Shown piece by piece: positions 28,059 through 63,912 of a stretch of DNA of 64,000 nt. This DNA is from Bilabrum cf. latius (taxonomy: Eukaryota), in assembly GCA_965178125.1 (NCBI GenBank), contig OZ237755.1, forward strand, positions 62,001-126,000. The letters run 5' to 3'. Each line of letters starts with the position of its first letter. The first letter of the stretch is position 1. The translations under genes were made by a program, and so were the position numbers. The notes under the pieces were generated by a model, which was not told the DNA's origin, ran no database searches, and worked only from the letters and a program-made list of their open reading frames with translations.

Positions 28059-29062
28059 ATGGCGGCGAGTTCAGAGCCACAAGCTAGAAAGGAAAGGCGA
28101 AAGCTGTAGACGCAATGCTTCACCTGCTTGGAGCCGACAATGCTTCCCAATTAGATAGAGATTTCGGTTCACACACTGCCTAAAATGATGAAACGCGAGC
28201 TTCGACTCGTGCTTCCAGGACTAAATCTCGACAACATTCTTGCTATACCCACAAGCCAGCATGCCAAGATGGACCTAGTCAATATTGGCCCTGATGTGGC
28301 GCAGGAGAAGGATGACTTACTTGAAAAGGTATGCCTCCACGTGATGGCCACTGAAAGCCTTGCATCCGCACAACGCGTGCAAACACTGCGTTTGATGATA
28401 TTTCCATTCTCTAAATTGGCGCAGTTTGTAGAGTGGAGCGCGTCTGTGTGTTCCTCTTTGGAGAAACAGGGCCATTGGGCCGACTACATCGATCCGTGTT
28501 CAGGATTGCCAGTAAGATCGCGGCTCTGAACCTTACTTGCCTGTTTTCCCTGCTTTCAGATCGCACATGCTGCTATCTTGCCCAGGTTGAAACGCAGGGC
28601 AGGACCCGAGGGAATACCGTGTATCCCGAGGTCGACGGTTTCGAGGTGCTACGTCAGTACAGATGCACCACAGCTGGTCCGTGCAAAGTGCTCGTTCACC
28701 CTGTGTGGGGGACAGCAGTATACCCAGCAACCATGTTTACAAGTGCGCCTGTATCTGCTGTTGCGGATGCAATCAACGCGGCGTCTGGCACCGACACGGT
28801 CACCCTGCGGCCTCCCCCGGTGGATGCGGGTGGTGGCTCGTCGGGTGCGGGCCGCTCTGCTGCACCCGCCGACCCTGGGCCGGGAGAGGCGCCGCAAGCA
28901 AGCGGTGCAGGTGATTCTGTCTCAGGTGAACACGAGACTGCCGCATCAAGCGACTCCCCCGCTGCAGCTGCCAGTCCCGGGGCCGTGGAGGTTCCCACTG
29001 CCACTGGGTCGGTCGCAGGATCGAAAAGTGCGGCTGAAGTTGACGACAAGACCTTGACATAA
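28059..29062 (+). CDS. MMADHC: Cobalamin-trafficking protein cblD (MMADHC-like); introns 28329-28424 and 28512-28585
   Basis: 'IEISVHTLP..KRELRLVLP', 'QEKDDLLEK|FVEW', 'GHWADYIDPCSGLP' and 'GPCKVLVHPVWGTAVYPATMFT'. TAGs at 28107 and 28152 (start codon provisional); ends in TAA. Confidence 0.85.
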
Positions 29063-29126
29063 GCAGTTGAGCAGACAAACCTGCGCTCCGCAGCGACACA
29101 CTCTCCATACTTTGTTTGTTGCCAAT

Positions 29127-31826
29127 TCACTGCCCATCGCCACGGGCCTTGCCAATGGCCAGCCGAGGGATACGGCTGGGGGAATCCCGAGCCGGGGCCG
29201 TGCTGCCCCCGCCGCCTGCTTCAACGCCAGAGCCAAGATCGCCGCCAGCCTTTGAGGCAGCAGGCCCAGCAACACCAACACCAGTACCAGCACTAGCACC
29301 CACATCCACACCGGCACCAGCTCGACCGTTGCCTCCTGCCCCTGCTAGCCCACTTGTGCTGACGGCATCGGCACGTCCACCCGTCCCCACCGCGGCCGTT
29401 CTCTTCCTGCCCATCCCCGCTCCGCTCCCAGCTCCCGCCCCGGTCCCTGCTGCCCTCCTCTTGGCCCTGGCCCTAGCGCTCTCTCCCTCCGTCCAGGCCT
29501 CCACGCACTCGACAGGCCACTCGGGGAACACGCCCATCGGCTCGTCCACCAGCACATCGAACCGCGTGGACTCCACCAGTCTCCGCCGGAACCGCTCCTC
29601 AAGGGGCACATCCGTCCTCCTCAGCGCCTCCTGCAGCGTGCGAGGGGGACCCGTGGGAGCCACTTTGCGAGGAGGATTCCGGCCCCGGCCCCGCCCTCTG
29701 CCACGGCCCCTGCCCCTCGGAGCACCGCGAGCAGCGGCCCCAGGTCCCCCCCGGCCCCTCGCTCGGCCCCTCCCAGGCGCGCCCCTGCCTCGCCCGGGAG
29801 TGCTCGCCTGCACCCCGGGCCTCTTCTTCTCCGGAGGTGCCAGCGGCCACGGGTGCTTGTCCGCCCGGAGCACAGTGACCATGTCGGTGAGAAGGCCCGC
29901 CTTGAGGTCGTGGTCCTGCTTGGTCGTGGGCTTCATGGCCGGGCTCGCGTTGACCTCCACCAGCCAGGGCCGCAGCCCCGCGTCCAGCAACACGTCAAAC
30001 CCGTACAGCTCGAAGCACCTTGGCTGGTTGACCACTTTGTGGCAGGTGGCCCGCAGGGTATCCCCCAGTAGAGCACGGATGGATCGCTCCACGCGCAGGC
30101 GGGCGACCCTCCCCCTGGTGGCTTCGATGTGCAGCAGGCAGTCCTGCAGGTCCCACTTGCCCCCGTGCACGTCGCTGTACCCCTCCGCCTTGCTCTGGAT
30201 CGACACGTTGGTCAGGTGCTGCTCCAGGTCACTGAACCCCGACCGCACCCGGGTCCCATCAGGCAGCTCGATCGTGCCCGGGGGCAGCTCTGCTTTGGTC
30301 TCGATCGGCACGATCTCGCCCTTGGCGTTCCAGGTGGTGCGAGCCTTCTGAGAGAGAAGCAGAGTCTTCAAGTTGCGCCGCCAGCCCTGGGGCTGCTTGC
30401 CGCTTGCTGTCTCCGGCCCACCAGCTCCGGATGGGTCAGCATCGGTACCAGGCGATCCCTCGGGTGTCCCAGCTCTCGCGGCAGCACCGGGCTGGCTATG
30501 TCCCTTGCCCTTCCCCTTGCCCTTCCCTTTCCCCTTGCCCGCGCCCTTGGCTGGCTTGCTGCTCTTCATGTATGTGAAGGGTGTGCTACAGAATCTCGCA
30601 AAGGCGTCGTGGTGCACGTACGCCCGCAACGGCCTGAACGACGTGACCAGCACGTAGATCCTCAGGTCGAACTTGCGCCTGCCGATGAGGTACGGGGGAG
30701 AGATGTACTGGGATATCACGAAGCACTCCAGGCTGTACTCGTGCTTGTACAGGTTCTTCTGCTGAAGCGTATTACGAGCCGTGCCCGTGGCATCCGTCCT
30801 GTACCCTCCGAAGAGCGCGGGCATGTCCTTGGCTCTCGCCAGCGCCTTCTTGCCGTGCGCCTTGCCCGTCGACGAGGACCCGATCAGGTCCATCGACCGC
30901 TCCGACCGCACCTTGGCCGCCTCCCTGCGCCGCGCCTCTGCCTCCACCGCCCTCGACAGCTCCTCCTTGCTCACACCAACCGCATCCACGGCGATGGCAC
31001 CCCCGCCCGACCCCTTCTCCTTCTCTCTCTCCTTTTCCTTCTCTCTCCCAGCCTCGTGAGGCGATGCCCGGGTCGCCTCGACCCCTCCAGCCCTGCCACC
31101 CGCGCCCCCTCGCGCCTGTGCCGCCTCCGCGGTCTCGAGCTCCCGCGCGGCCCTCCGCTGCAGCGCCTGCTTGGCCAGCGAGGCGCGGATGGCGCCCACG
31201 AAGCGGCGCAGCACGGAGATGCGGTCCAGCAAGAAGATGCCCTTGCCCTAGCTGCCACCGGCCGGCTTCACGATCCAAGGAGCACCTGGGTTGCGCCTGA
31301 AGTGCTCCTCCACAAGGCGCGCATCCTGTGGCAAGTAGAACGTCAGCGGGACCACGGCCGGGCGCGGGGTGCCCTGCCGCTTCATCTCCCGCTCGAACAG
31401 TCGGCAATTCTGAAACATCAGGTCCTTGCGAGAGATTTCCATGTGCTAGGGGTAATGGTTCAACAACTAGTCAGCACCTAGAACGCCCTGCCCGGTTCCC
31501 ATGCCGAATATATCCCTGGAAGTGTGGACGGATGCCCACATCTGCGACGGACGAGGGCGGCTGCCAGGAGCTCTCAAACACTTTGACCGATGGTATACGG
31601 GGAATTATTAGGTCTTTCATGCCATGAGCCGCCTCACCATGTTCCATCGGGCTATAGCACGCTTGCCACCGGCCTATTTCATGCCGGTTAGAATCGGTTT
31701 GAGAAAGAAATCAGTCAAGTAATAGAACGGAGGCAACTAGGCCCGCTCGCCCTGGGTGATGGGTCCACATTCTCTTTCATCGTCGTGCTGCTTTGGAGGG
31801 TCACTGGATTGATCGCTTGCGCTCAT
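29127..31826 (-). CDS. Tubulin polyglutamylase, TTLL1/TTLL9-like; intron 31542-31637
   Basis: 'D(Q)LLNHYP(Q)HMEISRKDLM', 'PLTFYLP', 'WIVKPAGGS(Q)GKGIFL', 'ISQYISPPYLIGRRKFDLRIYVLVTSF', 'HLTNVSIQ', 'CFELYGFDVLLD..PWLVEVNASP'. TAGs at 31737, 31674, 31467, 31446 and 31248; ends in TGA. Confidence 0.92.
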
Positions 31827-32083
31827 GCCTGCAATGACTTGGCAACCACCACTCGCTAATTGACCCAGGTGCTGCGTTTCTCGGCAATGCACACCGATGT
31901 TTTCTTAACCGACCCTTGCCAACACTTTGTCGCTTCACAGCAAACAGACAATTAGTGTTTGTGGAGTCGAAATTTATATTTTGCAACGTAATAAACTGGA
32001 TTCAAGTTTAGACCGGAGATCAAAGGTACACGTTACCACGATCCGACGGCCAAATCAAATCACCCTCGCAGTATTTCGGTCAA

Positions 32084-34649
32084 ATGGCCGGTTTTTCTCC
32101 CGACGGATCAGGGGTTATTGGTGGCGGTCACGGTGGCGGTGTAATGAAGGTGAATCTGTCTCCAGCCGTTGCCAATCTGGCGGAGGGTCCTGCACCGTGA
32201 GTTCGGAAGCAAGTGCCTAGCTCGAATACAGCGCTTGCTGTCTTTCCAATCAGCAAGTCGGCTGGAGTGACTGTGCGTTGATTGCAAGTTGGTGCTAGTT
32301 TCTTGCTGAAGACTGACCCAATGCGGAGATTCAACGCATATCGACTCCCCTGCAGCAAGGACACGCTTCGAATCCTCCTGTGGACTGACAACCATCTCGG
32401 GTACCAAGACAAGGACTCGGCAAGGTATGAGGACTCATTCCTGGCGTTTGAGGAAAGCATGGCCGTTGGAATACAGTGCCATGCAGACATGGCGATTAAC
32501 GGGGGCGACATTTTTCATCACGACCGACCAAGCCGAACTACTGTGGTCCGCTGCATGGAATCCATGAGGAAATATGTCTTTGGGCCACGTCCGGTTCGAG
32601 TTGAAATTTTAAGCGACCAATCGAAGGATTTCAAGGGTCCCACGTGCTTTGACCGGGCAAATTTCGCAGATCCGAACCTGTCGGTGCAGCTGCCAGTCTT
32701 TGCGGTGACTGGAAACCACGACCCAGCGGTACGAGACCATGCCGACAGCCTTCCAATATCAGCCCTAGATATGCTGCAGACGGCAGGCCTTCTAAACTTG
32801 TATGGCCGGCAGCGCATGAACGACCGCGTGGTGGTTCGCCCCGTCCTGCTCCGCAAGGGCAAGGTGCAGCTGGCGCTCTACGGCATGCCCAACATGAGGG
32901 ACCAGCGCCTGGCCGGGCTCGTGCGCAAGGGGAGGCTGCTCTTCGCCAAGCCGCCCGCAGGCTCGGGCAGCTGGTACAGCATCCTGGTGGTGCACCAGAA
33001 CAGGGAGGACGCAGGGAGGGGCAAGGCTTGCTTCAAGCACAGCAACATCCCCCTGTTCATCGATCTGGTGCTCTGGGCCCACGAGCACCCCTCCATGCCG
33101 GACTTCGAGAGTGTCGTTAACGACGGCCAGTCCGGTGGCGCTGGGAACGCACCAGGGGTGAAGGCGCCTGCGGGTGCTGCGGGCGGAATGGATGCCGATG
33201 AGGACGAGGACGAGGACGGTAATGACGAGGACGAGGAGGGCGTTGGAGCGGGTGCGGCGGGGCGGGCAAAGCGCCGCAGCAATCGGAAAGGGAGCGGCAA
33301 GAAGTCCGCGTCCAGTGGAGCGGCGGCCATGGAGGAAGAGGAGGAGGAGGGGGATGAGGGGGAAGGGGAGGCAAAGGCGGGCATGGCCGAGGCCTTGCTG
33401 GAGGAGAAGTCCACTGTCCCCGTGCTGCAGATGGGATCCACGGTGGCCACGTCACTAGACGAGGGCGAGTCGTGGCCCAAGCACTGCTACATCCTCGAGG
33501 TCACGCCGAACACCGATGTGCCAGGCATGTATTGGCAGCGGCGTCTCCCGCACAGGCTCAGGTGCGTGAGGCCGTTCCTCTTCGCGGACGTGCCTCTGCA
33601 GCACCTCACTGCTGTGCGGGCCCTGGGTGCAGAGCCTCTTGATCCGCGTGTGCAGGAGGCCGTGAAGGAGTGCCTGCGGTCCATCGTGGAGGCCTCTGTG
33701 GGTGGCCAGGCCTGCCTGCGGCTTGCTGTTGAGGAGGCTGTCGCGGAGGACGCACGCGCAGGGCTGCCCGCACCGGGGAAGTACGCGCTTTTGCCTGCAG
33801 AGGACGGGCGCGCGGGGTGGCTGGCGATGCCCGCGGGCGCTCTGCCGCCACCTCAGCTGAGGACACCGCTGGTCAGGCTGCGTGTGGAGCATTCGGGGGG
33901 GTTTGGGGTGGTGAGCGCGAGAGAGTTCGGGAGGGACTTCATGGGCCGCGTGGCGAATGCCGACGAGATCCTTCTCTTCTACCGCCGGCGGAAAGCCGCA
34001 TCAAGGGCCGTCGTGGGGCTGGCGGCGGGTGCCAAGGCCGCCGCTGGAGGCGCAAGTGGGGAGTAGGGGGGCGAGGAGGAGGTGATGACGGCTGTGCCGC
34101 TGCCTGAGAACGGCATTGGGGGCGGCGCAGACATCAGCACCCTCCTTGCGGAGGAGTTCCAGCGCAATGAGGCGAGGCCCAGCGTGCTGGCTCTGTCCCG
34201 GATGAACTTCGCTCTCAAGCAGCAGGTGTCTGACGAGGGCAGAGACGGGGAGCAGCCCGCGCCCAGGTCAAGGCGAGTCACTTCGGGCAAGCTCACGATG
34301 ATGGTGGAGCACGAGACCAAGGACCGGCTGGATCGACTCACCACGGAGTACAATCGACAGCTGAGCAAGGTGCAGCAGCAGGTGCAGCAAAAGCAGGAGG
34401 AGGCCAAGCGCCAGCTCGAGTCGTCCTCTGCCTCCGCCACTGGGGTCGAGGACGGGGAGGGGCTGGCCCAGCAGGCTCTCGCCGCGGGGAAGCTGGCAGT
34501 GGAAAGCGCGACCCTGGAGGCATCGACGGGCCTGGAGACGGAGGAGGACGTGGAAGCATGGGTGCAGCGCACGGTGGTGCAGCACACGGAGCGGCTGCAG
34601 AAAAAAACTGAAGGCAAGGAGAAGCGCATGGCCCGCGATGGAAAGAAGC

Positions 34650-34693
<44 letters not shown>

Positions 34694-35659: not shown

Positions 35660-35988
35660 GTTTTAATGGAGGAGGAATTTAGTTTTGCTGTAAGACGTAG
35701 CACTGTGCGATGCTCTGATTCGGCTATTCCAGTGGGTCCTTATGCTTTTCGCGGGCACGTGCCGCGTGCGACCACGGATGGCAAAATCGGGTGGACTCTT
35801 GCGACCTCGGCTGCCCGTCGTTCCCTTCCGAGAATTCGGACCACGTGGCCGGGTGCAAAACATCCTAAACCAGCAACAGGAATCTCACAGCACGGATCGA
35901 ATTTAAACCACCCTCTCGTACCGTTTCCGGGCGAGACTCTCTGGCTGTGGCCGCTGGCATCTCCACCGAGCGTTCTGGATCGGTGGCA

Positions 35989-40031: not shown

Positions 40032-40307
40032 TCGAGCCCCACTGGCACTGGCAGGGGTCGGACACTCGAGGGTCTGGGCGCTCCACCAAGACTTTCCTCC
40101 CCCTGCCATTCACCCGATCGAACAGCCTCATTTGGGGTGAAATAGACAGTAGGAATGTTTTGGGCTGTTGCCACGAAGCAATGAGAGCAATTTGGAAACG
40201 CAGATTGATCGTGGTACTTGTCATCAGCCCCGATGTGGCGGTTCTGCGGCAAAACACGAAGAAGCCGGAAGAATGCTGGCTCGTGCGCATGCCATCATTA
40301 AGCGGCC

Positions 40308-42246
40308 ATGGAGCTCGTTCTCCAGGACGAGCTATCCCTCATTGCTTTTTTTGCTGCTCTACTGTTGCTTGAAGTCGTGGCTCACAGGATCATTGGGACA
40401 TCTCCCCTCGTCGGGCAGCTCCTTTGTGGCATTGTCTTAGGCCCCTCACTTGCGAATATCGTCCCATACAGCGATGCACTGCGACTGGTAGGCAAACTGG
40501 GTGTTGGAATTCTTGTAGTTGAGAGTGGTTTGAACGTAGATCTTGCATCCGTTCTTTCCATTGGTCCGCGTGCCGTTGGCGCAGCCATCCTTGGAGTTGC
40601 AGCGCCAGTTGGTTTGAGCATCGCCGTCTTGTCGGGAATATTTGGTGCAGATATAAGGGCTGGACTAGCAGCAGGGGCCGCGATCGCCCCGACTTCACTA
40701 GGATTCAGCGCCCAGCTCCTGAAATTATCCGGGAAGCTGCAAACGCAGTTTGGAGCCTTGATATGTGCCGCTGCGGTAATTGATGATGTAGTCAGCCTCA
40801 CTCTACTAGCTGAAGTTCAAGCACTGGGTGGTGACGACGACCCAACGGCGTGGTAGATAGCAGCTCCAATTGTGGGATCCGTCGCGTCTGTCCTGGTTGG
40901 GGTCCTGCTCGCTCTCGCACTGGGCCCCGTGATGCCGGTTCTGGAAGACCGCCTTAAATCAACTATACCGAAGATGGCAGGACAGGTAGCGTTGGCGCTG
41001 CTGCTAGTGCTTTCGGTGGGCTTTGCGCTGTGCGCTCGGCTTGGCCTCAGCTCGGAGCTGCTCGGTGCCTTTGCTGCGGGGCTGGCGTTCAGCTCTAGCC
41101 GTGAGTGTCCCATGGCCCGTTTACCGCTGCTCCTATGCGCAGTGGCATGATTTTTTTTTGGGGGGGGGGGGGGGGGGGTTGATATGTGCAGTTTTCCCTC
41201 CTCCGCCTCCCGCCGTTTCCCCTGCTCGCCCTCCTCCTGGCCCTCCCTCACCCCCTGGTCCCCTTCTACAGCTTCCCACCCCCCCCCCCCCCCCCACCCT
41301 TACATCCTTCGCAGAGTGGGTCCGCGACTGCTGGTCCAGGCAGAGCAAACGGGTAGTCAAGTGGGGCGCGGGGCTCTTCTTCGCCGCCACTGTCGGGTTC
41401 GGCGTCCCGGCAGTGGAGACGCTCTTCAGGCCCTAGGCCCTGCTGCGGGGGGCGGGGCTGGCGGGGGCGGCGATCCTTGGCAAGTCGGTGGTGGGGGTGC
41501 TGGCTCCCCAGCTTAGTGTGATGAGTGCGGCGGTGTTCGCTGCTGCCATGAATGGTCGCGGTGAGTTTTCTTTCTTGATCGGGGACGTGGCTCGCGAGGA
41601 CGAGATCCTGACGGAGGACGAGGCGGCGGGGGTTGTGTGGGCGCTGCTAGCAGCCACCCTGCTGGCCCCCGTGGGGTTCAGGCCCCTGCTCGCTCTGTCG
41701 GAGCAGGTGCCCGGGCTGTGGGCGAGCACGCCGGGGCGGATGCCAGGGTTCGGCAGCGGGGGCGGGAGGCGGGGGAGTGGTGGTGGTGCGGGTGCAGGGC
41801 ACGGTGGTGAGGGGAACGCCGGGGATGTGGAGATGCAACGACAGGGGAGCGCGGGTAGAGACGGAGCGGCGGGTGCAGGGCACGATTGTGAAGGGGTCGG
41901 TCTAGGGCTGGGGCTAGGAGGTGCCTCCGCGGCTGACTTGCTGCAGGCAGACGACGTGCTTCGTCCGCTGCCTGCCCCCGGGGATCATGAGGGGGGGGAC
42001 ACCGGCAGGGGCAGGGGGCATGGGGGCGGGATTCGGGGAAGGGGGGGACAGCACAGGGGCGATTTCAGGCTGGAGGTGGAAGGTGCCGGGGATGGGTCGC
42101 CGCCCGAGGGCACGGAGGTGTCTCTGTACGAGGAGGGCGAGAGCGTGCTGTCGGAGGGCTCCGGGGGCAGCGCCATGGAGGAGCTGGAGGTGCACCTGGG
42201 GGCGGGGACTGAGGCCGAGGGAGATGGAGATAGTGTAGGCACATAA
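40308..42246 (+). CDS. CPA2-family cation/H+ antiporter; intron 41101-41314
   Basis: 'LVGQLLCGIVLGP', 'APTSLG', 'AAVIDDVVSL', 'LGLSSELLGAFAAGL' and 'MNGRGEFSFLI'. TAGs at 40854 and 41434; ends in TAA at 42244. Confidence 0.88.
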
Positions 42247-42418
42247 TCGAGCTGGTGGGTTCATAAGATTAAAATATGCGCGATAAAAAAACGCGAGAAA
42301 TTGTCAACCAAACAAAGTGAGCAACACGGCAGCCATCGCGCGGCGCCAGCTCGAGTGGTTCCGCAACAGCGTCTCTCCCCAGCGCTGAACATGGGAGGGT
42401 GTGAATCACTCTTCGACT

Positions 42419-49542: not shown

Positions 49543-52500
49543 ATGCATTCGTTGCATCAATAGGCTGCAGATCGCGTGCGCAAAGAGCTTTATCTCTTGC
49601 AGGGCAGGGTGAAGGAAGAGCGGTCAAAGCAACGAGCAGAAGAGCGCTCAAGTCTCGATACGAGGTTGCCAGCGAGCACACCCAGGACGCTGCAGCACCC
49701 AACACGACAAAAATCAGCACATGTTGTCTATCAACGATCGCCAGGAGTAGCTTTGCTCGCAGACCAGCTCGTATCTCCGTACCGCCCACCATCGAGGCCA
49801 CCAGCAAAGTAGCAAGGTCGTACAGAGAACAAAGCAGCAGTGCAACACGATGGAGCTTAGTCTATAGATTTTCGTAGTTCAATGCTCTTGTCCAAGACTT
49901 GGAAACCGCCATCGCTGCCTGCACTAGAGGTAGCGAGTGCCGGTACGCCATCACGGCGTACCGCTACAGCCTTCGTTCGCGCTCGCGCTCGAACGGCACC
50001 ATCGCCTAAGAAAACCAGGCATAGCATCGATTTAGCTGGAACATCACACAGGAGCAGCAACCCTGAACACAGTGAGCCAAACTCGCCTTCATGGCTTGTT
50101 CGCACCGTAGGGTCGGTTGCGAGGGTGGGGGTGGGGTCGCAAGAGGGGTCGCCACTGGCAGGCCGCGATGATCGCACGGGCGTGCTCGGCGATTCCATGG
50201 CTGCAATGCAGCACCGTGAACACGGCAAGGGCCTAGCCATGGGTGATCTCGAGGCGGAAGGGCACGATTCGGGCGGCAAAGCAGCAAGTGATGTCGGTGC
50301 TGCTCAGCAGCAATCGGCGCTGGCAGCCTCTGCTCTGCTGCGCCGAGCACTCCAGCAGAGCAGTCACTTGAACAGTGGCAGCACAGCAGACACATTGGTC
50401 GCGAATCGGTCCGTTGCTGCAGCTAGAGGCGAGAGCATCGCTTGGCGGTCAAGAACTGGCCACGGGCCCTCTGGCAGCTTGCCGCGCGCACGTGGTGCTT
50501 GGGCCAAGGATGTCGGCCAACTTGAAGCTGGGCCCGGAGTGTATGCCGATATCCTCGATGGGGCACCTATCAGCAAGTCTAGACGAGAAATCCAGCCAGC
50601 CGAGTCTTCTTATCTGCCATGGACGGACGCGTGGATAGGTGGGGGCACCATCCACGAGGAACGGGAACAGCAGGCGTCGTCGCTTGCTGCCCCAGGCCGA
50701 AGAGCTGGTGCGACCAGTCCGATCGAAGCCAGCAGGAGTTTCGAAGGTGCGCGATCGAAGATAGCCGCTGCTCCAAAGGCTGCGAGCCCAAGTCAACCAC
50801 TGGCAGGCAGCAAGCTTTGGAGGCGCGGAGGTAGCCCCAGGTCTCGAGCGGTGCAGTCAATGCAGGCACAGCCATCCACACCTAGTATAGGTCCTGTGGT
50901 GGAAGAAGGTATCGGTGATTCGAGAATCAGCAAAGCAGGAGCTGGTTACAGCACACCAAGCACGAGGGCTCGACAGGTAGCATCCGCTCCTGGCCACGAC
51001 TCTGCTGACGCGGCCGCATTGCCAAGCACGCCTCGAAGCGATGATTGCTCAGGTACATCCATTGAAAAGGATAGCGGGGGCGTATTCGCACTGACATCTC
51101 CGTCGGAGACCATGCTAAACAAGAGCAGTGATGCATCGCATGGCTCCATACGCGATGGCAAAACCAGCCACTTGGTCTTGCAACCTCACTCCATCCGGGT
51201 GCAGCACGGCGAACCCTCCTCCCCTTCGGCTGCCTCTGCTATTTCCAGCGATGCTCGGCGCAGCGTGCATTTCCTCGGTGATGATGCCGAGGATGGGCCT
51301 GGCGACTTGAGTGAGGCTCGGATGCCGAACGACCGGGTTGTTGGCAGTTACGACTTGCTGCGCGCCCCTGCTACCGGCCCGCCCTCGCCGCGCCACACTG
51401 CTTCATTTCTCGGGAGCCATCCGGGGCCTGTATTTGCTACAGTGGCATCTCAGCCTCGGCGCCAGAGCGTGATGGAGACAGACGCGGTGGGCCACACGGC
51501 CACAGTGGCATCTCAGCCTCGGCGCCGGAGCGTGATGGAGACAGACGCGGTGGGCCACACGGCCACAGTGGCATCTCAGCCTCGGCGCCGGAGCGTGATG
51601 GAGACAGACGCGGTGGGCCACACGGCCACAGTGGCATCTCAGCCTCGGCGCCGGAGCGTGATGGAGACAGACGCGGTGGGCCACACGGCCACAGTGGCAT
51701 CTCAGCCTCGGCGCCGGAGCGTGATGGAGACAGACGTGGTGGGCCACACGGCCACAGTGGCATCTCAGCCTCGGCGCCGGAGCGTGATGGAGACAGACGC
51801 GGTGGGCCACACGGCCACAGTGGCATCTCAGCCTCGGCGCCGGAGCGTGATGGAGACAGACGCGGTGGGCCACACGGCCACAGTGGCATCTCAGCCTCGG
51901 CGCCGGAGCGTGATGGAGACAGACGCGGTGGGCCACACGGCCACAGTGGCATCTCAGCCTCGGCGCCGGAGCGTGATGGAGACAGACGCGGTGGGCCACA
52001 CGGCCACAGTGGCATCTCAGCCTCGGCGCCGGAGCGTGATGGAGACAGACGCGGTGGGCCACACGGCCACAGTGGCATCTCAGCCTCGGCGCCGGAGCGT
52101 GATGGAGACAGACGCGGTGGGCCACACGGCCACAGTGGCATCTCAGCCTCGGCGCCGGAGCGTGATGGAGACAGACGCGGTGGGCCACACGGCCACAGTG
52201 GCATCTCAGCCTCGGCGCCGGAGCGTGATGGAGACAGACGCGGTGGGCCACACGGCCACAGTGGCATCTCAGCCTCGGCGCCGGAGCGTGATGGAGACAG
52301 ACGCGGTGGGCCACACGGCCACAGTGGCATCTCAGCCTCGGCGCCGGAGCGTGATGGAGACAGACGCGGTGGGCCACACGGCCACAGTGGCATCTCAGCC
52401 TCGGCGCCGGAGCGTGATGGAGACAGACGCGGTGGGCCACACGGCCACAGTGGCATCTCAGCCTCGGCGCCGGAGCGTGATGGAGACAGACGCGGTGGGC

Positions 52501-55446
52501 CACACGGCCACAGTGGCATCTCAGCCTCGGCGCCGGAGCGTGATGGAGACAGACGCGGTGGGCCACACGGCCACAGTGGCATCTCAGCCTCGGCGCCGGA
52601 GCGTGATGGAGACAGACGCGGTGGGCCACACGGCCACAGTGGCATCTCAGCCTCGGCGCCGGAGCGTGATGGAGATGGACCTGCAGGCCACGTCCGTGAC
52701 ATCGCCAAAGAGACGACGAATCACCCATGCTTGGACCAGCACTTGCACCAGCGTGGCAGTGGTGCCTCCTGGACCCATGACTCTGCAAATCACAAAGGTG
52801 TTGAGGAGACCATTGGTGGGTACACCCACTGGGAACCCTGCCATAGACTCTATCGCTTTGTCCGAGTCAAGCGGAGACTCGGAGCGAGACGACTTTGACG
52901 ATGGGGGACCGTTTGCATCGCATGCCTGGCGTTAGCACCAGCCCTAGCGGTCTCCAGATAGCGCGGACGATGGAGGCAGCCATGGTCGGCGCACACCGGA
53001 TAGTCTGCTTGGCATGCCCATGTCTCGAACTTGGGCTAATCCGCTACATGCAGAGGTGCTTGGCGATGCGTGTGCATCCGTGAGGGGTCGCGAGGGGAAT
53101 GACGAGGACGTGTCTCGACTGCGGGCCATGCTTGCTTCCGCAGTCGCCCAACACGAGACGCTCCGAAGAGGCATGTAGTCGCGCTTCAAGTCACTGTAGG
53201 AGCAGTTGCACTAGTCTACATAGCGCGCATCTGCTTTGTAGCACGAGAATGACCGGTTGCGAGCCGAGATGTCCTCTATGTCAATTAGGCACGGACATCA
53301 GCTGCAAGCACTAGTTCCTCCACCGCCGCCTACCTTGTCGCAAGATGGGTGGGTCGGTACTGCGTGCATACCCTCAGCGGTTTTAAAGCCGCGCAGAGCC
53401 ACCTGGTCAGTCCAGGTGCCTCCCGCGTGCATGTGCTCGAGGCAAGCTTCTTCTTCGGTGAGCAAGCGAGAGAGGGCCACGCCACCCCGCGGGCGTGTGG
53501 GGTAGCGCGACCGCCAGGGACCGGGGTCTAGCTACCTGCAAGTGCTGGACACAGCTGGTGCTTCGATCAGAAGCACGAAAAGATCACAACCATTGAAGAC
53601 AAGCGGGGACGTGACTAGAAGTAGGAGCAGAAGCCAAGATAGAGATGCCAGCAGGCACAGGGATTGGTCTGCTCATGTGAGCAACTGGACTGGCACACTT
53701 GTTCGCCGAATGGCAACTGTATCTCGTGCGCCGCAGATGGTGTGGACTGCAGATCACGAGAATATTGTGATCGCGGCCATCGAGGCAGAGCAGGCGGGGC
53801 CTCACCGCAGGCCTCGCCTATCCCTCGTACCTGCTGCCACGGCGACATCGGTACTCAGCAGTACTGCTCATGCTTGGCCGGCCGCTGCCAGACAAGCAGT
53901 GAGCCTCGCGCGAACGGCTTGCATCGGGATGCGCCGGGAGCTGGCAGACCTGAAACGATCTTGTCAATAGCTCGGGGTTGGCCCAGTGCGAGCCACTGTT
54001 GCTGCTGCCGCGTATAAGCACAACGAACGCATTCTCCGGCAAGGCATGGCGGCGGGCATCAAGGCAGAGATTTCGAAGCGAGACGAGCACGTAAGGGTTG
54101 CTACAGAAGCGCTTTAGACCAGGTATGAGAGAAAGATCCAGCAGCTTCAGGATGCAGTGCACCGCATGCTGCCAGTGGTTCAAAGTACTGTTGCAGGCAA
54201 AACCGCCGTGGGAGGCGGCAGATCGCCTTCGGCCGGTGCACTGCCAACTCAGGTTGCGTCGCCCCAGGGGCATGGACCACAGCAAGAGCCTAAGCGCTTA
54301 CCCTTTGTTTCGTCCGGACATCTCGCAACCACCGCCACCAGCCATGGATAGGTTGGCGACAGGTCACGCAGCAGCAGCAGCAGGACGGACGGGTCACGGG
54401 GTCTGGCTGATGGGCCACAAGGCAGGATATATGAATCACAGGACATGGGGCGACCAAAACTGGATTTGGCCGGTCAGCGGAATAGCATACGGCAAATGGA
54501 CACATCCTATCATGCGAGTACCACGCCGAGCGCCAGTGGTCCAACTAGGCAAGAAGAAGGCAAGGATGAGCTCGCAGAGAACCGATAGGGCGACGTTGTG
54601 CAGTCAACAGGGTTCCAAGGGCAGAGGCACGGGCCATCTAGAGAGACAGGCAGGCCACACGTGGTCCATAGGTCTAGTCAGGAGGCGCATCGCGATGCAG
54701 GGCTCCACGATCACGATGTCTGGACACCGCCCAAGTCCACTCAAGCGATCGCCCCCGGGGGTAATACCGGCACTCACCATGGCACCTACCTGCATAGTGA
54801 CCCCACCCCTGATCCGGCACGCCCTGTCTCGCACCTGTCACCCACGATAGGTCGCACCACAGCAGCACATGCCAGTGGTATGGACAGGGGCAGCAGCCGG
54901 GGTTTTCGCTTGCTGTCTCCGCGCTTGGTTGCTGGGGGCGCCCGCGGGTCGAGGCAGGGCAGCGCGGCTATCCGTCGGGTGGACGAGGCTCTCGCAGCTG
55001 CACGGGCCCGGATTGCCCAGCAGAGGGGCAGGCCAGAGCACGAGCATGGGCATGGGCATGGGCATGGGCAGGAGGGAGCTCTTGCTGGTGGAGAGGGCCG
55101 GGAGGGGGAAGGTTTGTAGTGGTAGTCACAGCGGGGGATAGTGGCTAGCAGAGATGTAGACGGCTCGTTTGAGGTGGACCTGACTCGGGTGGATGGCAGT
55201 AACAGAGATGGCGCGCTTGGGTCCAGTGCGAGGTAGGGTCGAGATAGTGGTGCGGGTCGGGAGCCACTTGGAAGCTCGCTCAAGTTACGACTCGGGGACT
55301 CATTGCACACTTTGGGAGCCAGTAGATCCATGTCCAGCGAGGCTGGCACTGGCGCCGCGCTGCGACCAAGCCAGCTCCGAGGCGGTCGAGCCAGTGATCG
55401 AGGAGGCGAGCAACCGATCATAAAATTGCGGGTTAGACTGCGTTGA
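49543..55446 (+). CDS. Large (~1970 aa) low-complexity and coiled-coil protein with a 21-aa tandem repeat; unknown function
   Basis: ORFs 49576, 49882, 53257, 53542, 54157 and 54598 all share one frame, joined by about 18 TAGs, and end in TGA at 55444. Coiled coils near 53110-53280 and 54000-54170. Confidence 0.7.
51439..52675 (+). repeat. 63-bp coding minisatellite, about 19.6 nearly identical copies (TVASQPRRRSVMETDAVGHTA)
   Basis: Unit acagtggcatctcagcctcggcgccggagcgtgatggagacagacgcggtgggccacacggcc recurs every 63 nt from 51439 to 52636. Confidence 0.97.
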
Positions 55447-55635
55447 TGTTCTTAAAATATCAAATATGAATATTTGTGCTGCGCATGGTGTTTACAGCCA
55501 GCTGCGGTCGCCCAGCCGCAACTTGAAGCAGAGTCCGGCCAGCCAGTTGCGACCGCAGCGCAACGGATCGAATGCGACACAACCATCTGCACACTGGTAC
55601 GAGCAGCAAAACGCCTGCTCTTGCTCCCGTTCTCC

Positions 55636-58600
55636 ATGAAAAGAGGGAGTAAATCCACGAGAAGGCGTCAGTAGGCTGGTCGCAAATTAGAACGACTGCT
55701 GTTGCAAGGGCCTGGGGCTGCAGCAGCTAGCGATGCCGGCCTCGGACGGGTGTCAAGCGCAGCCAGACAGCGAGCGGTGGACAGTATTGTATAGGACACA
55801 TTGGGAAAAGATTTTTCATAGAGTGTGCCAGTCTTACCCGCAGCTTCGCATGATCACGCTGGCAGCGACCATTCTATGGCGCGCACAACAGCGGCGGCAT
55901 CCCGGCAGCCGGCCCAACAGCGAGCCTGGGAAAACGATCCCCAGCTCGGACAGACTACTACCAGACATCCCATTGCTGGAAAGCCGCTGTTGCCTCCAGG
56001 GGGCGGCGGTGGCCAGCAGTCTGACATTGAAAGGCTCATCGCAAGCGAGGGGAAGTCCAGCTGGCACGGTTCACCAGTGAGTACGCCATCGCAAGACGAA
56101 ACTCCAAGGCACAGACAGTTTGGATCGGAAAGTTCGTTGGCGACGCCGCACGCTCGAAGGGGGGGATACAACCCACAGTCATTTGCAAAGCAACCGCGGG
56201 TGGCGAGTGCGGCTGAGTCTCGCTCGGTGCCAATGGGTGACGGCAGCCAATGGCAGGCATCTGCCAGCAATCCGCAGCACCGCGCGACTACAGGGATTGG
56301 AGCCAGTCGATCTCAAGTGTAGCCTGCCTCTTCATCCGCACGAGACCCGCGCGACGTGTTGGATGCCGGCCGCCCCGCCCCCGAGGCCGAGCAGATGCGC
56401 CGGGCCCGTCAGGCCCGCGACAGCCGCCAGCGAAGGTCTTATTTCTCCGCAGGGTCAGCGGGAGGCTCGATAGCCCCGGGCACGGTGGATCTCACAGAGA
56501 GCGACAGCGACAGGGACAGAGAGGGCCTGGGGCGGTATGAGGACCATCTGGCGAGGACAGGGGCCCGGCGCACCTTCGAGCAAAAGAGGATAGAGAGGGA
56601 GAGGGAGAGGGAGAGTGCGGGGCCCATGGCCGTGCACTCGAGAGAATCGCACGGAAGCGGGTATCTGGGCGGACCGAGCGGACTCTTCTCGCACCCACTG
56701 CCCAGCGAAGGCAGCTTCGCATCGCAGACTAGCGCGAGCAGCGCCCGCGGCACGGCCCTACCGGCCAGCAGCGGCGCCTCGACCTCGTACGGCAGCGCCT
56801 TCGTGAACGAGGACAGGGATCTCTTTGCCCCTGCATCGGACTTCATGGCAGCGACGTTCGACCCCCGCACAGCCCTGGCACAGGCCAACAAAGCTGCCCG
56901 CAGGCAGCACCGCGCGGCCGCGTCGCTTCGGGACCGCGTGCAGAAACTCACCAAGGCGCTTCACGACGCGCGGGCAGAGAGAGACGTGCAGAGGGAGGAA
57001 GCAGAGGATGCGAGACTGCAGCTCGGGGCCGCCCGGGCACAGCTGGAGGCCACGGAGACCAAGCTGGAGGAATCCAACGAGCAGCGGCAGCAGCTGCAGC
57101 TGGAGAACGGCGAGCTAGCACAGTCGGGCCAGGGCCATGGCCAGGGGCATGGCCTGGCAGAGAGCAAGGGCAGGGACAGTCCTTCCAGCCCCAGTCGGCT
57201 GCAGAGGGCGGGCTCCCGCTCGCTGCTGCTCCTGTCGCATGGCCCATCACTGGGCAGCAGCAGCAGCAGCCTCCTCCAGCGATCCGCCGCCCCCCGCAGC
57301 ACCGTGGGCCGCAAGCCCCGTGCCCTTGAGCAGGGCTCGGCTCTGCTGATGGCGCCTTCCTCCCCGGGCGGGCCCAGCCCCATGGTGTCCACCAGAGAGG
57401 TCGAGGATCGCCTCCGCAAGCAGCTCATCGAAGCCAGGAAGGCGGCCTCGCAGGCGGCCAAGGCGGCCTCCAAGGCCAAGGTGGATGCCGCCAGGGACAG
57501 GATCGCGGCGCAGGAGGCGGTTCGCCAGCGCCGTATTGCCAATGACGAGCTGGCCGTGACTCGGCGCGAGCTGAAGCGGGTGCAGATAGCAGCGAGGGCC
57601 AACACCGACGGAGAGGACGCCGCCAGGCTGCAGGCCAAACGGCTCGCGGCCGCCGTACGGGCCATGGCGGGCTCCGTTGCGTCGTGGGCAGCAGAAGCTG
57701 CGGCACGGGCAGAGGCGCGCGTGTGGCGACTGGCGGCGGCTAGCGCGCTGCAGCTGGGGCCCGGGACCGGAAGGGGGCGGGAGGGGCCAAGCGCGGGCCT
57801 GGAAGCGGGCCACCTGGCCGCTGCCGCCGTGTCCGGCACAATGAAAGGCGCGTTAGCACTGCCAGCGGCAGGTGCAGGCGCCGGTGAGGTGCCCTCCTCA
57901 CACCCCCTGCAGGTGGTGTCCCAGTCGGGTGAGGGTCTGGCGGCAGATGCGGCCCCTCGTCCTCCCACTCCGCAACCGCTGAGTAGCGCAGATGCGGCAG
58001 CGCTGGAGGCAGGCTCCCAGGACCGCAGCGGCCCCGCCCAGCGCGCCTTGAGCGACGCTCTAGAGGCACAGGGAGGCATCGCGGCCCAGGCTATGCAGGC
58101 CGCGGGCGAGTCGCCCTCTGCCGGGATCACGCTGCTGGAGGCTGAGCTGAGAGCGCTGCAGGCAGGGCAAGCGGGTCCGGGCGGGGCCGGCGTGCCGTTG
58201 GCCGACAAGGCGGCGCGTCTGGCGGCAGCCGCGGGAGAGACTGGGCAGTCCCTGTCCATGCAGCCGGATGACGGCAAGCATGCACCCGAAGAGCATGGGA
58301 ACGGTTCGCCGGGCAGGTCTCCATCTGGGGGTGGTGGTAGCAGGAGAGGGCGGGGGTCGCCAAGTCGGCATGGGCAGGGCGACGCCTGGGGCACCGGGCC
58401 TGAAGACGAGGCGCAGCGAGTTCTCTCCGAGTCCCGGGCGCAGCGCATGCTGGCGGATGCAGCGCACGAGCGTGCCAAGGCCGCAGCCACCATGTCGCAG
58501 CTTTCTTCGCTGCAGCAGTCCGCCTCGGCAGCGGCCGCATTCCGCGACGCGCTCGTGGTGCTCGCCTGGGACTCCCGGGGCTGGGAGGCAGGATACGAGG

Positions 58601-61600
58601 CCGAGAAGCGCGCAGCAGCGCAAGGGCGGCGGCGGATCAAGGAGCTGGAGGCGCTGCTGGCCGAGTCGCAGGAGCGGGAGCGCAGGCGCGCGGGCGGCAT
58701 GATGCAGGCGGAGGGGAAGGCCGACCTGCTGCAGGCCCAGCGAGAGGGACTCGCGAGGGGCCTGGCCACCACGCTGGCGGAGGCGCTGCAGAATGGGGGC
58801 AGCGGCGAGCAGAAGCGCAAGAAGAAGAAACTGAGGCGCGAGCGGAGGCGCGGGTCTGTTAGCAATTACGACTCGGCGTTCTGTCTGGCTGGCGGGGCGC
58901 TGGGCCGCGCGCACAATCTGCTAGTAGGTCTGTGGCACGCGTGCGTTGGCATGTGCCGCACGGCGGTAGGGACGTCCTCGGTGGCTCGCATGGAGACGCC
59001 CGGGGCGGGACAGCGGGCCGCTGATCTGGTGCTGGAGCGGGGGGCCGCAGTGGTCCCTGATCTTCGGAAAAGCGCACACGGTGGTGGGGGGCCGCTGGGA
59101 CGGGCTGAGATCCCGCCCGAGGAGCTGGGCGTGCTGGCAGGCGGGACAGAGAGGCAGGCCGGGCTATGGGCGGCGGACGTGGCCCTGCGATCGATGGTGT
59201 CTCTGTGGGAGGCGGCGGATGCGGCTGTCCGGGCGCGGGCCGGTCTGGGAGTGGGGGCGAGCGGTCGGCTCGGCGGTAAATCCGAGGACCTGGCGGCTCG
59301 GCTGGGGATGGCCATCGATGCAGCGACGGGGCGCGTCAGGCGTGCGCTACTGGCTGGATCCATTCCTCGGCTGCAGGGGAGAGGGGGCCGCGGGCAGGAC
59401 GAGCAAACAGGCGAAACTGTTTCCGAGGGGGCTGCCGGGGACTACAGCGACGCGGTCCCTGTACCACCGGTCGGTCCCATCGACCTCGGCGCGTGGCTCG
59501 GCTGGGCGGGCGATCTGGGGGCGGAAGATCTGGCTGAGCTGTCCGCGGGTATCACCAAGCAAGCAGAGATGGAGACTTCTCGACAAGTCGGTCGCCAGAG
59601 CTCTCATGGCGACCGCCCCGTGCAACAACCCGGCACAGTAGTTGATGCAGGTGATGCGGGCGGGAGTAGCTCAGCAGGTGATGATCTGCGGGACGAGGTG
59701 GGGCTGCGCGCCAGCCTGGACGACTCATCCTCGGTGGCCTCCTCCCTGCCCGACTCTCGATTGCTGAGAATAGGCATGCCGAGGAGCAATAGCCCCGTGG
59801 GGCGGGAGGCGGGGCCAGGGACGGGGCACAGAGATCGCCTGGTGTCCGATCTGTCCGACGGCGGCATGGCATCCGCGTCCTTCGCACCCCCGCACATGGC
59901 TGGTCGCACGGGTGAGGCACTGCACACCAGGATGCCGGCACCCTCCCCTGCCCTGGGCGGGAGGCGCGGATACTCCATCGATGGGTCGGACGAGGCCTCC
60001 TCTTTCCTTGACAACAGAGAGGGCCACCAGGCAGGCAGCTCGCCGATGAGCGTGCCTTCCGACCGCCTGCAGGAAAGGGGCGACGATGAAGCACAAGGCG
60101 CGTCCCGCACTCCGAATCGAGGAGCCAGCGCTGCGAACAGTGGGTCGGGAGGACGGCCGGGCACTGCAGCCAGCCACAAAGAGGGCAGGCGATCGAGCGG
60201 CAGGCTCCATCATCCGGGGTCTGTGTCCAGGCTGGGCCGCAGCAACTCGGCCCTTGCCCTCGCGGCTGGACTCACGGGCACCGGTGCAGCGGCGAGAGCG
60301 CCAGCGGCATCCTCCCCCCTGGCAGGCCCATCCAGAGTCGCGGGCGAGTCAAACATCACGTCGAGCAGTTTCCTTGAGCCGGGACTGGGCCTGGATGGGG
60401 AGGGGCAAGGGCATGGCAATCGGGCTGGTGTGGCTGCCCCGACATCCGCCAGTTCGGCCGACGGTGATGTGTTCCAACTGCCTACAGTAGATCCGCAGGC
60501 CAGTGGCAACGGCGATCGCGTTGCACCGCTGGAGGTGCTTCTGGAACGCGCCGCCAATCGACCCGAGGACGAGAAGGCGGATCTGTTGCTCATGGGCGAG
60601 CTGGACGGGGTGCCTGCGGCGCTGCAGTCGAGTGCCGGTGGGATTCCAGGGTCGCCCATGCGCGCTTCCGATGGGAGCATCCATGGGAACAGAGTGCCCT
60701 TCCGTGAAGGGGGCGTGGGCAGTGACCCCAAAACAAGAGGGGATGCCCTCCTTGGCTCCATTAAGAAGTTCGTTGATGGTGGTGGCACCACGGGGGCTCA
60801 GGTGCAGGCTGGCATTCGCAAGAAGGCAGAGGAGCAGGCCAGGAGGAAAGAGGCAGCGGAGGAGTAGCTGAGGCAGCAAGGCATCGGGGTGATGCAGCCA
60901 GCCAAGCAGCCAGACGTGCGGGGGGGGCAACGGCAACAGAAGCAAATGCAGAAGCTGCAGAACGAAGCTGCCACAGTGCAGCCGCGCACTCGCTAGCTGT
61001 CTGCACCGCCCGCGGGACTGTCTCAGGAGCACCAGCAAGATGCGGGGCTGGCCGTCGACAGCGAAGAAGCGCGGCCCAGGAGAGGGGGCGGGCGCAGAGG
61101 GAACAAAAAGGGCCGCAGGGGGCGCCGGGCCTCGAGGGCCTCGGAGCTCGCAGACCTAGCGCGGGAGGCAGCGGGTGAAGGGCCGCCTGGGGAGGAGGAG
61201 GGGGGCTCTGGTAGGTCCCATCGGCGCAGCACGGGGAGCGGCAGTGAGGAGGAGAGCGAGAGTCCGGCTGCAACGCGACGCAAAGCGGCGGCACAGCGGC
61301 GCGAGCAGCGGCGGCTGACGATGATGCAGGTGGCTGTGGCTGAGGGCCTCATGTCAGCGGCACAGACAAGCGGTTTCGAGCAGGTAATGCAGGAGCAGCT
61401 GCAGCAGGTCGGGCTGCTGGCAATCAAGCGAGGGACCAACGGCGGCAATCAAGGCGGCACGCTGGGCAGAGGCGGCGTGTTTGACGGCCACGAGGACGAA
61501 GAAGACGCAGTGGAGTACACGGTGCCTGCAGGCGCCGGTCCCTCCCATGCCAGCCAGCTGTTTGCCACTGTGAGCGCGATCTTACTGCGGCTGCGGCGGA

Positions 61601-63912
61601 TCCTTGCCACGGGCGCCGCGCTGCAGAGATCCCCCTCACTGGACGCTGCTTCCGTGCTGCTGACCACAGAGACCACCGAGATCCTGCAGTGCGAGCGTGC
61701 GTCTCTGTTCCTGTACGACAGGCAGAGAGACGAGCTGTGGGCCCGCGTGTACCAGGGCACGTCCGACATGGCCTCGCTGGTGTCTGCCTCCACCAGTGCT
61801 GGCAGCGAGCAGCCCATGATGGAGATCCGTATGCCGGCCAGCAAGGGTGTGGCAGGCTGGGTAGCCACGCACGCAGAGCCGCTGCTGGTCACCGACGCGT
61901 ACGCCGACTCGCGCTTCAACACCGCGGCGGATGGACGCACCGGCTTCCGCACCCGAGACATCGTTGCGGTACCGATCATGGAAGGTCATGTGGTTGACAA
62001 GAGGAGACATGGTGCGGCAGGACAGGCCAGCGATGGACCGGGCACTAGCCCGCGGGACGGTGCCGGGTAGGATAGTCCCCGCGACCAGGTGCTGGGGGTG
62101 CTCATGGCAGTCAACCGGCGGCGGCAGCTGCAGGCAGCCCTCGGTGCAGGGAGCAGCGCGGCCAAAAAGGGCGCACAGGCACTCGGGCACGAAGGCTTCA
62201 GCCCCCTCGACGTTGTGCTGCTGGGCATCCTGAGCACACAGGCAGCCGCCATCATCCAGAGGGCCAGGCGTGAGGCCCGCGACAAGGCCAGGAAGCAGGC
62301 GAGAGACGCAGTGCTGCACATGATCCCGAGGTTGGACCGCCCTCTGAGGCCGCTCGTGGAGGCGCTGGGGCTGCGGGCGCGACTGTAGCAGGCCGCGTGC
62401 ATGGGAGAGGCTACCGCGGAGACTGAAGGGGGCACTCTTGCGGACAGTGGGTCAGGGAACAAGATGCAGGCATGGCCAGGGCACAGGGTGGGTGTGTTGT
62501 CCCACAGACCGCCCCCGTTCGTGTCAGACGAGCACGAGGCCATGCAGTCGCTGCTGTCCAAGGCGCTGGAGGCGCCGCAGGCTGGGTAGGAAGGCAGCGG
62601 GTCCGGCAAAGAGCCAGAGCCCGGCGAGGAGAAAGTGGGCACCTCCCTTGCACTCGTCACACGATCAGGGGCAGTCATCACCCGCATGCCCCTCCGGCTC
62701 GCGCCCCGGATGATGGTCCCCGTCGCCTCCCGCGTGATGCCGCTGGACCCGTGGCTCCTTCCAGACGGTGTGGACCCCGCGCTAGCGTGGGCGGAGCAGA
62801 CGCAACAGGCTGCTGCGGCGCTTGTTGGCTCTGCGGGCGCCCGTCTGTTTGTGCTAGCCGAGAGCACGGGCCGGCATGGGGGCGACCTGGGCTAGTCTCT
62901 GCACGAGGCCAGGGGCTCTCAGCTGCACGCGGGCGGCGCAAAGGGAACGGGCGCACGGCGGCCCCTGGGGTCTCCTCTGCAACCGCAAGATAAGCCGTCG
63001 GGCGGGCGCGACGGGTGGACCTCTCCCTATGCCAAGGGGAAGGGACAGGGCTAGGGACAGGGCTAGGGACAGGGCGGGTCCGGGCCCCAGCAGCAGGAAG
63101 GTGGCGCAGGCTGGTCGCAAGGCAAGTCATCTGCCTTCACCGGTTAGTCACTCGGTGGCTTGGGCAGCGGGGCCACCGATGGTACCCAGGGTGGCAGCAC
63201 GTCGACCCACCCAACCGGACCATGGTCCCCTGGTGTGGGGATGTTCTGGTTCAGCAGTCTCGACAGAGACGCACAAGCCTCCTACACGAGGCAATCCGCC
63301 AGCGATGCCGCTGCCGCGCCCGATCCGGACTCGCTGCGTGCCGGGCGGGTGGTGAAGCTGATGAGTGCGATGGAGACGGGGGCAAGCGGTACGCCCACCA
63401 CGCCTGAGCAGCGGCGGCGGCGCGCCATGCAGGAGGCCATGGAGGCGCGATGGGTAGAGGCGAGGCCGCGCGGGGATCGCTGCTGGGCGCCTAGGCACTC
63501 CGTTGACTCGATCGCTGGGAGGGCAGCGTCCCGCACCGGAGAGGACCTGAGCCCGCCACCCATGACTCCCGAGCTGGCCAAGCTGGGCGACCCTGTTGGC
63601 CTGGTGGATATCCTGCACCCGCCCGAGGGCACGGTGTCGGACCGAGGGGGCAGAGGGCCTCAGCTTATCCAGCCGCGGCCCTCGGCCTCCCCATGGCACA
63701 ACCCACGAATCGACCTCGACTGCGTGACCCCGCTCGCGGTAGTGCCATGCATGGACAGCAGGGGCAGGTGCACGGCGGTGCTGGAAGTGCCGCTGCTGAC
63801 GCCCACCGAGGGTGCTCTGGAGGCCCTGGCTCTCTTTGCTCGTGTCATCGGTTCCTAGGCAGCTGCCGTGCAAGGACTCGACCTCTGTGCCAGGGCATTC
63901 AGGGGTGTGTAA
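55636..63912 (+). CDS. Giant (~2760 aa) coiled-coil protein with C-terminal GAF domain(s)
   Basis: One frame from ATG 55636 to TAA 63910 with 14 TAGs. GAF motifs 'CERASLFLYD..ELW', 'GVAGWVA..LLVTDAYADSRFN..D..TGFRTRDIVAVPI', 'VLGVLMAVNR' and 'FSPLDVVLL'; possible degenerate second GAF 'AVVPCMDSRGRCTAVLEV'. Confidence 0.75.

Follow-up and report, generated by a model that had tools for sequence, protein, structure and literature searches.

The nuclear genome sampled by the 64-kb window analysed here (G000:C21:62001-126000, the whole stretch of DNA under study) uses a genetic code in which UAG specifies glutamine while UAA and UGA remain stops (NCBI table 15). We regard this code, read from conserved protein columns and conserved gene ends across the eukaryotic assembly (48.6 Mb, 111 contigs), as nearly certain. 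For the full mechanism, our best explanation is that table 15 would be implemented by a tRNA with a CUA anticodon as the decoder and by a release factor, eRF1, that would no longer read UAG. We give this explanation a probability of roughly 0.8. The initial annotation, made from the window alone, had proposed that UAG and UAA are uncoupled, and the genome-wide data bear this out.

The residue encoded by TAG was read from dyneins, whose columns were compared against 120 homologs. Ten single-ORF genes of 4300-5071 codons each (46,890 in total) were used; these open reading frames (ORFs) are bounded by TAA or TGA by definition, yet they have full dynein length. They contain 134 TAG, 1813 CAG, 194 CAA and no TAA codons in frame, with up to 26 TAG in one single-exon gene. 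At columns conserved at 90% or more, TAG faces glutamine 20 times, arginine three times, glutamate twice and asparagine once (n = 26), and no leucine or tyrosine column faces TAG among these 26. At the same level of conservation, CAG faces glutamine at 256 of 357 columns and CAA at 24 of 29, so that the glutamine shares of TAG and CAG are statistically alike (Fisher p = 0.66). Columns at 70% conservation give glutamine in 22 of 40 cases for TAG and in 290 of 524 for CAG. Non-glutamine columns occur for all the glutamine codons alike because, for nine of the ten dynein genes, the homolog set consists of paralogs. TAC and TAT face tyrosine at 308 of 414 highly conserved columns.

TAA behaves differently from TAG inside genes. 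If the ratio of TAA to TAG followed that of CAA to CAG, as under code 6, about 14 TAA codons would be expected in the dynein genes, and they would have broken the ORFs. A kinase search gave 148 matches, 57 of which hold about 85 TAG codons by hand count. The same matches hold two TAA and three TGA codons, each of which lies within an intron at the edge of a match. An intronic TAA was likewise seen in one match to Ras and in one to cyclophilin, so introns account for all four TAA codons in the matches to these three families; one TGA in a Ras match lay outside the intron check. In-frame TAA at conserved positions, which the initial annotation had named as a sign of a ciliate-type code, was found in none of these genes, the 46,890 dynein codons included.

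The meaning of the stops was determined at gene ends fixed by protein conservation, in 45 genes from five families. TGA ends 37 of them, TAA eight and TAG none, which places an upper 95% bound of 6.4% on TAG. Of the 17 loci for dynein heavy chains, 16 stop 3-6 codons past the Dynein_C model (13 TGA, three TAA), and the TAA stops occupy the same position as the TGA of paralogs; the remaining locus is not terminal and was left out of the count. A Cys prenylation motif stands at the end of 20 of the 29 Ras/Rab loci (16 TGA, four TAA), and the other nine show no TAG after such a motif. In five of 17 cyclophilins the stop, always TGA, lies no more than six codons past the domain. Three of 20 xDEL sites, one of the 20 having been taken on the wrong strand, are what we take to be ends of endoplasmic reticulum (ER) proteins, and all three are TGA; none of the eight xDEL-TAG sites is recognisable as an ER protein end. 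As a genome-wide signal the xDEL-plus-stop pattern was discarded, with 152 occurrences against 262 in the control. Finally, the end of eRF1 itself (DDFI-TAA) coincides with the yeast and Ectocarpus eRF1 ends. In three genes TAG lies 12, 20 and 21 codons before the stop, upstream of conserved terminal motifs, and is thus sense close to the stop. Over the final 30 codons of 41 genes, three of the 30 glutamine codons are TAG. Termination at UAG, the other observation that had been named as contrary to the proposed code, was therefore not seen at any of the 45 conserved ends.

A candidate decoder is present in the genome. The initial annotation had predicted a tRNA with a CUA anticodon outside the window, and one such gene lies at G000:C23:907607-907679 on the minus strand, where it was called by ARAGORN and scored 69.8 bits against Rfam as the best nuclear match. 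It is single copy, folds into a complete cloverleaf with all stems paired, and is followed by a T6 run; the genes of its contig carry in-frame TAG. We checked 29 sites with a CUA or UUA anticodon-loop pattern using ARAGORN, and the CUA tRNA was the sole nuclear match; no UUA tRNA was found among them, although intron-bearing genes would escape this check. Ordinary glutamine tRNAs are present as one UUG and two CUG genes. The CUA tRNA carries U35, A37, G73 and G10 together with D and anticodon arms of glutamine type. Its G73 is shared with the native Gln-UUG tRNA, whereas the native tRNA-Tyr has A73, and the D arm and anticodon stem of the CUA tRNA recur in 15 viral tRNAs, every one with the glutamine anticodon UUG. 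The ARAGORN label 'Pyl' for this gene was set aside, as it is based on the anticodon only and the conserved columns give glutamine. The proposed glutamine identity of the CUA tRNA rests on its body and on the conserved protein columns.

Several further features of the translation apparatus were recorded. The GlnRS gene (L247:1012-3267, minus strand) has FFGL where human GlnRS has FKRL in the anticodon-binding region; the comparison was with human only, and although FFGL could relax the reading of base 36, it is uninterpretable without a standard-code stramenopile GlnRS. Nuclear tRNA-Ile genes have a GAU anticodon (L011, L043), Ala-AGC and Thr-AGT have A34, and no Ile-AAU was found among the tRNAs scored. 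A dispersed family of AT-rich tRNA-like genes, annotated as Met(CAT) and almost identical to one another (L025, L035, L039, L046-L048), has an altered loop in some members and shares its body with a Pro(TGG) gene. The 38.4-kb mitochondrial contig G000:C111 (L117-L119, L004) reads TGA as tryptophan (table 4), carries a tRNA with a UCA anticodon, and contains very long rps3- and rps4-like ORFs.

A family search found one eRF1, on contig C35, plus pelota. The eRF1 gene has four exons, 438 codons, two in-frame TAG codons and a TAA end. All three introns are joined as modelled in contigs of runs X2 and X3, two are joined in X1, and none is joined in the DNA run X18; no run containing the gene is recorded as RNA, X1-X3 are taken as such by guess, and X18 may be the source of the assembly. 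The spliced contigs have no differing letters, keep both TAG codons and the TAA, and continue 44-54 nucleotides past the TAA. Thus, both TAG codons are unedited. A minor alternative acceptor of intron 3 was seen in run X1 (L050:1384-1532; depth 9.5 versus 489).

We aligned this eRF1 with 112 homologs (human numbering, which is yeast + 3). One TAG falls at the Q44 column, which is glutamine in 110 of the 112. The changes in the protein are A27T, R28K, G29A, N30D, I35V, S60V, L69Q, L84Q, N129S and K130H, of which G29A, N30D, S60V and K130H occur in none of the homologs. Relative to the Bicosoecida sequence P0013, the N domain of this eRF1 is 71% identical, compared with 85% for P0096 and 77% for the metagenomic locus L203, while the M-domain identities of the three are equal (75-77%). 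The altered eRF1 predicted by the initial annotation is therefore recognisable in an unusually diverged N domain, but not in the GTS, NIKS and YxCxxxF motifs or at E55 and S70, all of which are intact with unusual residues alongside. The T32G change seen in Iotanema is not present, as the junction that encodes the intact GTS is confirmed by the spliced contigs. Published work describes a bond between T32 and the third-position G, assigns I35 to the hydrophobic cluster (PMC5681627), and reports a slight UAG bias for L69A (PMC4381064).

Based on these data, we propose a model for the capture of UAG. The CUA tRNA would be charged with glutamine by the ordinary GlnRS, and, as C34 does not pair with A, it would decode UAG but not UAA. 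The single eRF1 may have lost most of its grip on the third-position G through changes around the motifs rather than in them. The best candidates are TKAD in place of ARGN just before the GTS loop, a segment that would shift this loop, plus I35V, S60V, L69Q and K130H. This eRF1 would still read UAA and UGA, and as a result UAG alone would be captured. Blindness of this eRF1 to UAG is an inference that goes beyond what its sequence can show.

A number of observations weigh against this model or limit it. The glutamine at UAG is read from sequence alignments rather than from the proteins themselves, and the conserved-end sample consists of 45 genes from five families. Within the window, low-complexity tails precede all three TAA codons at which genes end; thus, the window alone suggests but does not prove that TAA is a stop, and the proof comes from the conserved termini elsewhere in the genome. 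The Rfam search scored only 63 of 780 tRNA candidates (48 matches). The CUA tRNA is equally near the native Tyr, Gln-UUG and Gln-CUG tRNAs (50 of 73 positions each), has C1-G72, and has six of seven acceptor pairs equal to the native tRNA-Tyr. C1-G72 and U35 are eukaryotic tyrosine identity elements in the identity table of PMC9976931, and that table gives no eukaryotic glutamine set. The Tyr-like acceptor stem may reflect a hybrid origin or chance; by a rough estimate, the chance of such a match among about 25 tRNAs is near 0.1. In eRF1, the second TAG falls at L69, a column that is leucine in 111 of 112 homologs, and glutamine at this position is also known from the PDB chain 8ip8_bl and from loci L169-L188, where eRF1 is encoded without in-frame TAG. 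The protein keeps G31, T32, S33, S36, E55, N61-S64, S70, V71, Y125, C127 and F131. Published mutants weaken the case for single candidates: one at position 60 had no significant effect, E55, Y125 and N129 affected UAG (PMC3632111), and N30A had no effect (PMC4381064).

The strongest alternative shares the code but supposes that eRF1 still reads UAG and is outcompeted by the CUA tRNA, an ambiguous intermediate in which some premature termination would be tolerated. All experimentally defined eRF1 recognition residues are intact, and TAG accounts for only 6% of glutamine codons in the dyneins and 9% in the window. The single copy of the CUA tRNA also counts for competition, yet essential single-exon dyneins hold up to 26 TAG and eRF1 holds two. 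Together with the lack of TAG at the 45 conserved ends and the faster divergence of the eRF1 N domain than of the M domain, this makes competition unlikely in our view.

We consider it improbable that UAG is read mostly as glutamine but partly as tyrosine, with the acceptor stem of the CUA tRNA attracting TyrRS. The tyrosine identity elements C1-G72 and U35 and the six shared acceptor pairs fit such a reading, but the tRNA lacks A73 and G34, and not one of the 26 highly conserved columns facing TAG is tyrosine, whereas TAC and TAT find tyrosine readily at such columns.

A context-dependent UAG, sense inside genes and stop at some ends as in Condylostoma and Blastocrithidia, would accommodate the few window genes that have TAG shortly before TAA or TGA in non-conserved tails, and the sample of 45 ends is compatible with a UAG-stop share below about 6%. 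It is very improbable all the same, given that no conserved end is TAG, that TAG is sense at -12, -20 and -21 and shows no depletion near ends, and that no xDEL-TAG site resembles an ER protein end. Hardly any credence is due to code 6 (UAA and UAG both glutamine), RNA editing of UAG or assembly error: the window's three TAA codons alone are compatible with code 6 and nothing else speaks for it, but TAA stands exactly at the TGA positions of paralogs and is missing from the dynein codons, TAG is unedited in the spliced contigs, and TAG lies on glutamine columns and recurs in independent metagenome contigs.

The window itself (GC content about 65%) fits the table 15 code that we favour. As the initial annotation had stated, three genes end at TAA, all on the plus strand and in frame with ORFs that are long only if TAG is sense. 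The first (29060..29062) closes a last exon at about 28586-29062 named as MMADHC, the second (42244..42246) closes a CPA2 gene, and the third (63910..63912) ends a 2818-codon GAF-domain ORF. Two of these names are firm (Pfam Na_H_Exchanger, E = 1e-31, for CPA2; Pfam GAF, E = 4e-10), but MMADHC is a weak name on the last exon alone, where the Pfam match (E = 2.6e-4) is below the cut-off. The annotation's claim of AT-richer sequence after the TAA codons also stands. GC content falls at all three, from 0.61 to 0.52 over the 64-nucleotide gap after the MMADHC-like TAA, from 0.70 to 0.53 at CPA2 and from 0.66 to 0.47 at the GAF gene, but over 150 nucleotides after the MMADHC-like TAA it is 0.64 because the convergent TTLL gene begins at its stop, 29127-29129. 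Read-through of this TAA would run 235 nucleotides into the TTLL coding sequence. The next gene after CPA2 starts about 170 nucleotides downstream, and a convergent ORF ends about 106 nucleotides past the GAF TAA. With a window gene end defined as the first TAA or TGA, 15 further gene ends are at TGA (one near 27520), in agreement with the number claimed. No tRNA gene was found in the 64-kb window, as had also been reported for the CUA tRNA.

Codons over 18 ORFs or exons of the window include 66 in-frame TAG, 573 CAG and 117 CAA. Several of these TAG codons fall within conserved domains. Two lie in the Na_H_Exchanger domain on the plus strand: 40854..40856 is residue 185 of an ORF whose residues 18-267 match PF00999, and 41434..41436 is residue 40 of the second exon of this domain, residues 25-126 of which match PF00999. 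On the minus strand, 31248..31250 stands in the motif KPAGGS-TAG-GKGIF of the TTLL gene (TTL family, E = 4e-64), a column that we take to be usually glutamine. In the GAF gene, read with TAG as sense, one TAG (62068..62070, plus strand) lies inside the GAF match span, and another (63856..63858, plus strand), 18 codons before the TAA, would be glutamine by the genome-wide code. The window also contains a 21-residue coding repeat in about 19 nearly perfect tandem copies (51315-52720), in an ORF of 1968 codons with 18 TAG and no Pfam match, and a probably non-coding, TAG-rich short tandem repeat between the p24 and cyclase genes (19786-20100).

The organism is, on its protein sequences, a bicosoecid stramenopile related to Cafeteria. 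Its nearest named dynein is that of Cafeteria roenbergensis (Bicosoecida, 81%), and a quick dynein tree of 39 rows places it sister to the Cafeteria clade (Shimodaira-Hasegawa-like approximate likelihood ratio test, 99). The dynein relatives of the Cafeteria clade are stored as whole proteins of more than 4100 residues, which suggests that their genes have no in-frame TAG. The eRF1 tree groups the organism with Bicosoecida sp. CB-2014 in a clade of 12 rows (support 96), in which its own branch is long. A cox1 search gave matches at 94% and 89%, neither of them a named close relative. The GC-rich eRF1 group L168-L188 was considered as kin and rejected, as it does not branch with this organism. 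Two 18S genes, 77-83% identical, are present in the assembly, a 1700-nucleotide one in an array on C12 (L121) and a single 1802-nucleotide copy at G000:C95:6099-7900 (L120); the latter looks haptophyte to us and is presumably from a co-sequenced eukaryote. At locus L280 a cyclophilin domain continues in one frame into DEAD-box helicase-like sequence.

Of 377 metagenome eRF1 loci found, 80 were kept, and two bear on the code. The close relative L167:2-709 (92% amino acid and 82% nucleotide identity) shares the code: it has one in-frame TAG opposite a CAG here and a TGA opposite the TAA here. The column of that TAG is glutamine only in this genome's gene and glutamate in most homologs. The distant L209:2-1300 is 62% identical to this eRF1 and 80% to L203. 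It has two in-frame TAG codons, both opposite glutamines of L203, ends in DDFM-TGA, and has a strongly altered N domain (AQGTGTSV, TASQIKSHANRNAV, YWCDSRF) that is 67% identical to that of L203, while the two M domains are 92% identical. The N domain of L203 is canonical, and this one gene has no TAG among its 18 glutamine codons. Thus L209 is possibly an independent reassignment of UAG, seen through a single gene from which the meaning of UAA and the code of L203 are not readable. Two divergent eRF1 contigs found by tblastn, L223 and L227, have TAA and TAG opposite Asp or Glu, and may represent a UAR-recoded organism or alignment beyond the stop. No eRF1 relatives were found in viral contigs beyond one 14-residue match.

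We tentatively suggest, while rather doubting it, that stop codons have changed meaning repeatedly among bicosoecid-like stramenopiles, which would make this group a second hotspot. UAG would have become glutamine at least twice independently, once in the lineage of this genome and L167 and once in that of L209, given that the N domain of its near relative L203 is canonical; each event would have brought its own remodelling of the eRF1 N domain with GTS intact. In this genome the decoder would combine a tRNA-Tyr acceptor stem with a tRNA-Gln body, and UAA, a minority stop, would be retained through release-factor and anticodon mechanics and not through its abundance.

Few codes separate UAG from UAA, and they raise the question of how an eRF1 can drop UAG yet keep both other stops. 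The present genome unites a large contiguous assembly, a CUA tRNA gene and a single eRF1 in which few residues have changed, and with standard-code relatives including Cafeteria the question becomes testable by domain swaps. Amber-suppression engineering likewise seeks an eRF1 that passes over UAG alone. Standard gene callers will fragment the genes of this lineage, and the code is probably hidden in protein databases. The depositors of the assembly may already be aware of it. We found no report of a nuclear UAG or other stop reassignment in a stramenopile in the literature covered, which excludes subscription journals.

The code type has already been published, a point that the initial annotation did not raise. 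According to PMC5304391 and PMC9161772, Iotanema spirale reads UAG as glutamine and uses UAA and UGA as stops without context dependence; a tRNA-Gln(CUA) was predicted there, but the gene was not identified. Iotanema is an endobiotic fornicate rather than a bicosoecid, its stops are mostly UAA (104 UAA, 15 UGA) whereas TGA accounts for 37 of 45 here, and its eRF1 has T32G in GTS whereas GTS is intact here and the tRNA gene is in hand. The ciliates Hartmannula sinica and Trochilia petrani, in the main text of PMC11687900, reassigned only UAG to glutamine (table 15) in recent independent origins, and Protocruzia tuzeti is cited there for the same code type. UAA ends 86.9-98.3% of genes in these two ciliates, compared with eight of 45 in this genome of 65% GC; that text reports no suppressor tRNA detected in these two and does not mention eRF1. 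Its authors reason that UAA cannot follow UAG because UAA ends nearly all genes. The dominance of TGA here implies that this is not the general reason for keeping UAA.

Other systems are more distant. In the rhizarian exLh and in three phyllopharyngean metagenome-assembled genomes UAG alone was reassigned, but to leucine rather than glutamine; two of the latter have CUA tRNA genes, as here. The exLh eRF1 has L69A where this one has L69Q, a glutamine that unrecoded eRF1s can carry too. Scotinosphaera reads UAG as serine, as cited in PMC11687900. Table 6 of ciliates, dasycladaceans and hexamitids resembles this code in reading UAG as glutamine through tRNA-Gln(CUA), but there UAA is glutamine too, whereas in this genome TAA ends genes and the search turned up no UUA tRNA. 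Compared with all of these, what is new in the present genome is its lineage, the identification of the tRNA gene itself, and the dominance of UGA together with intact eRF1 motifs.

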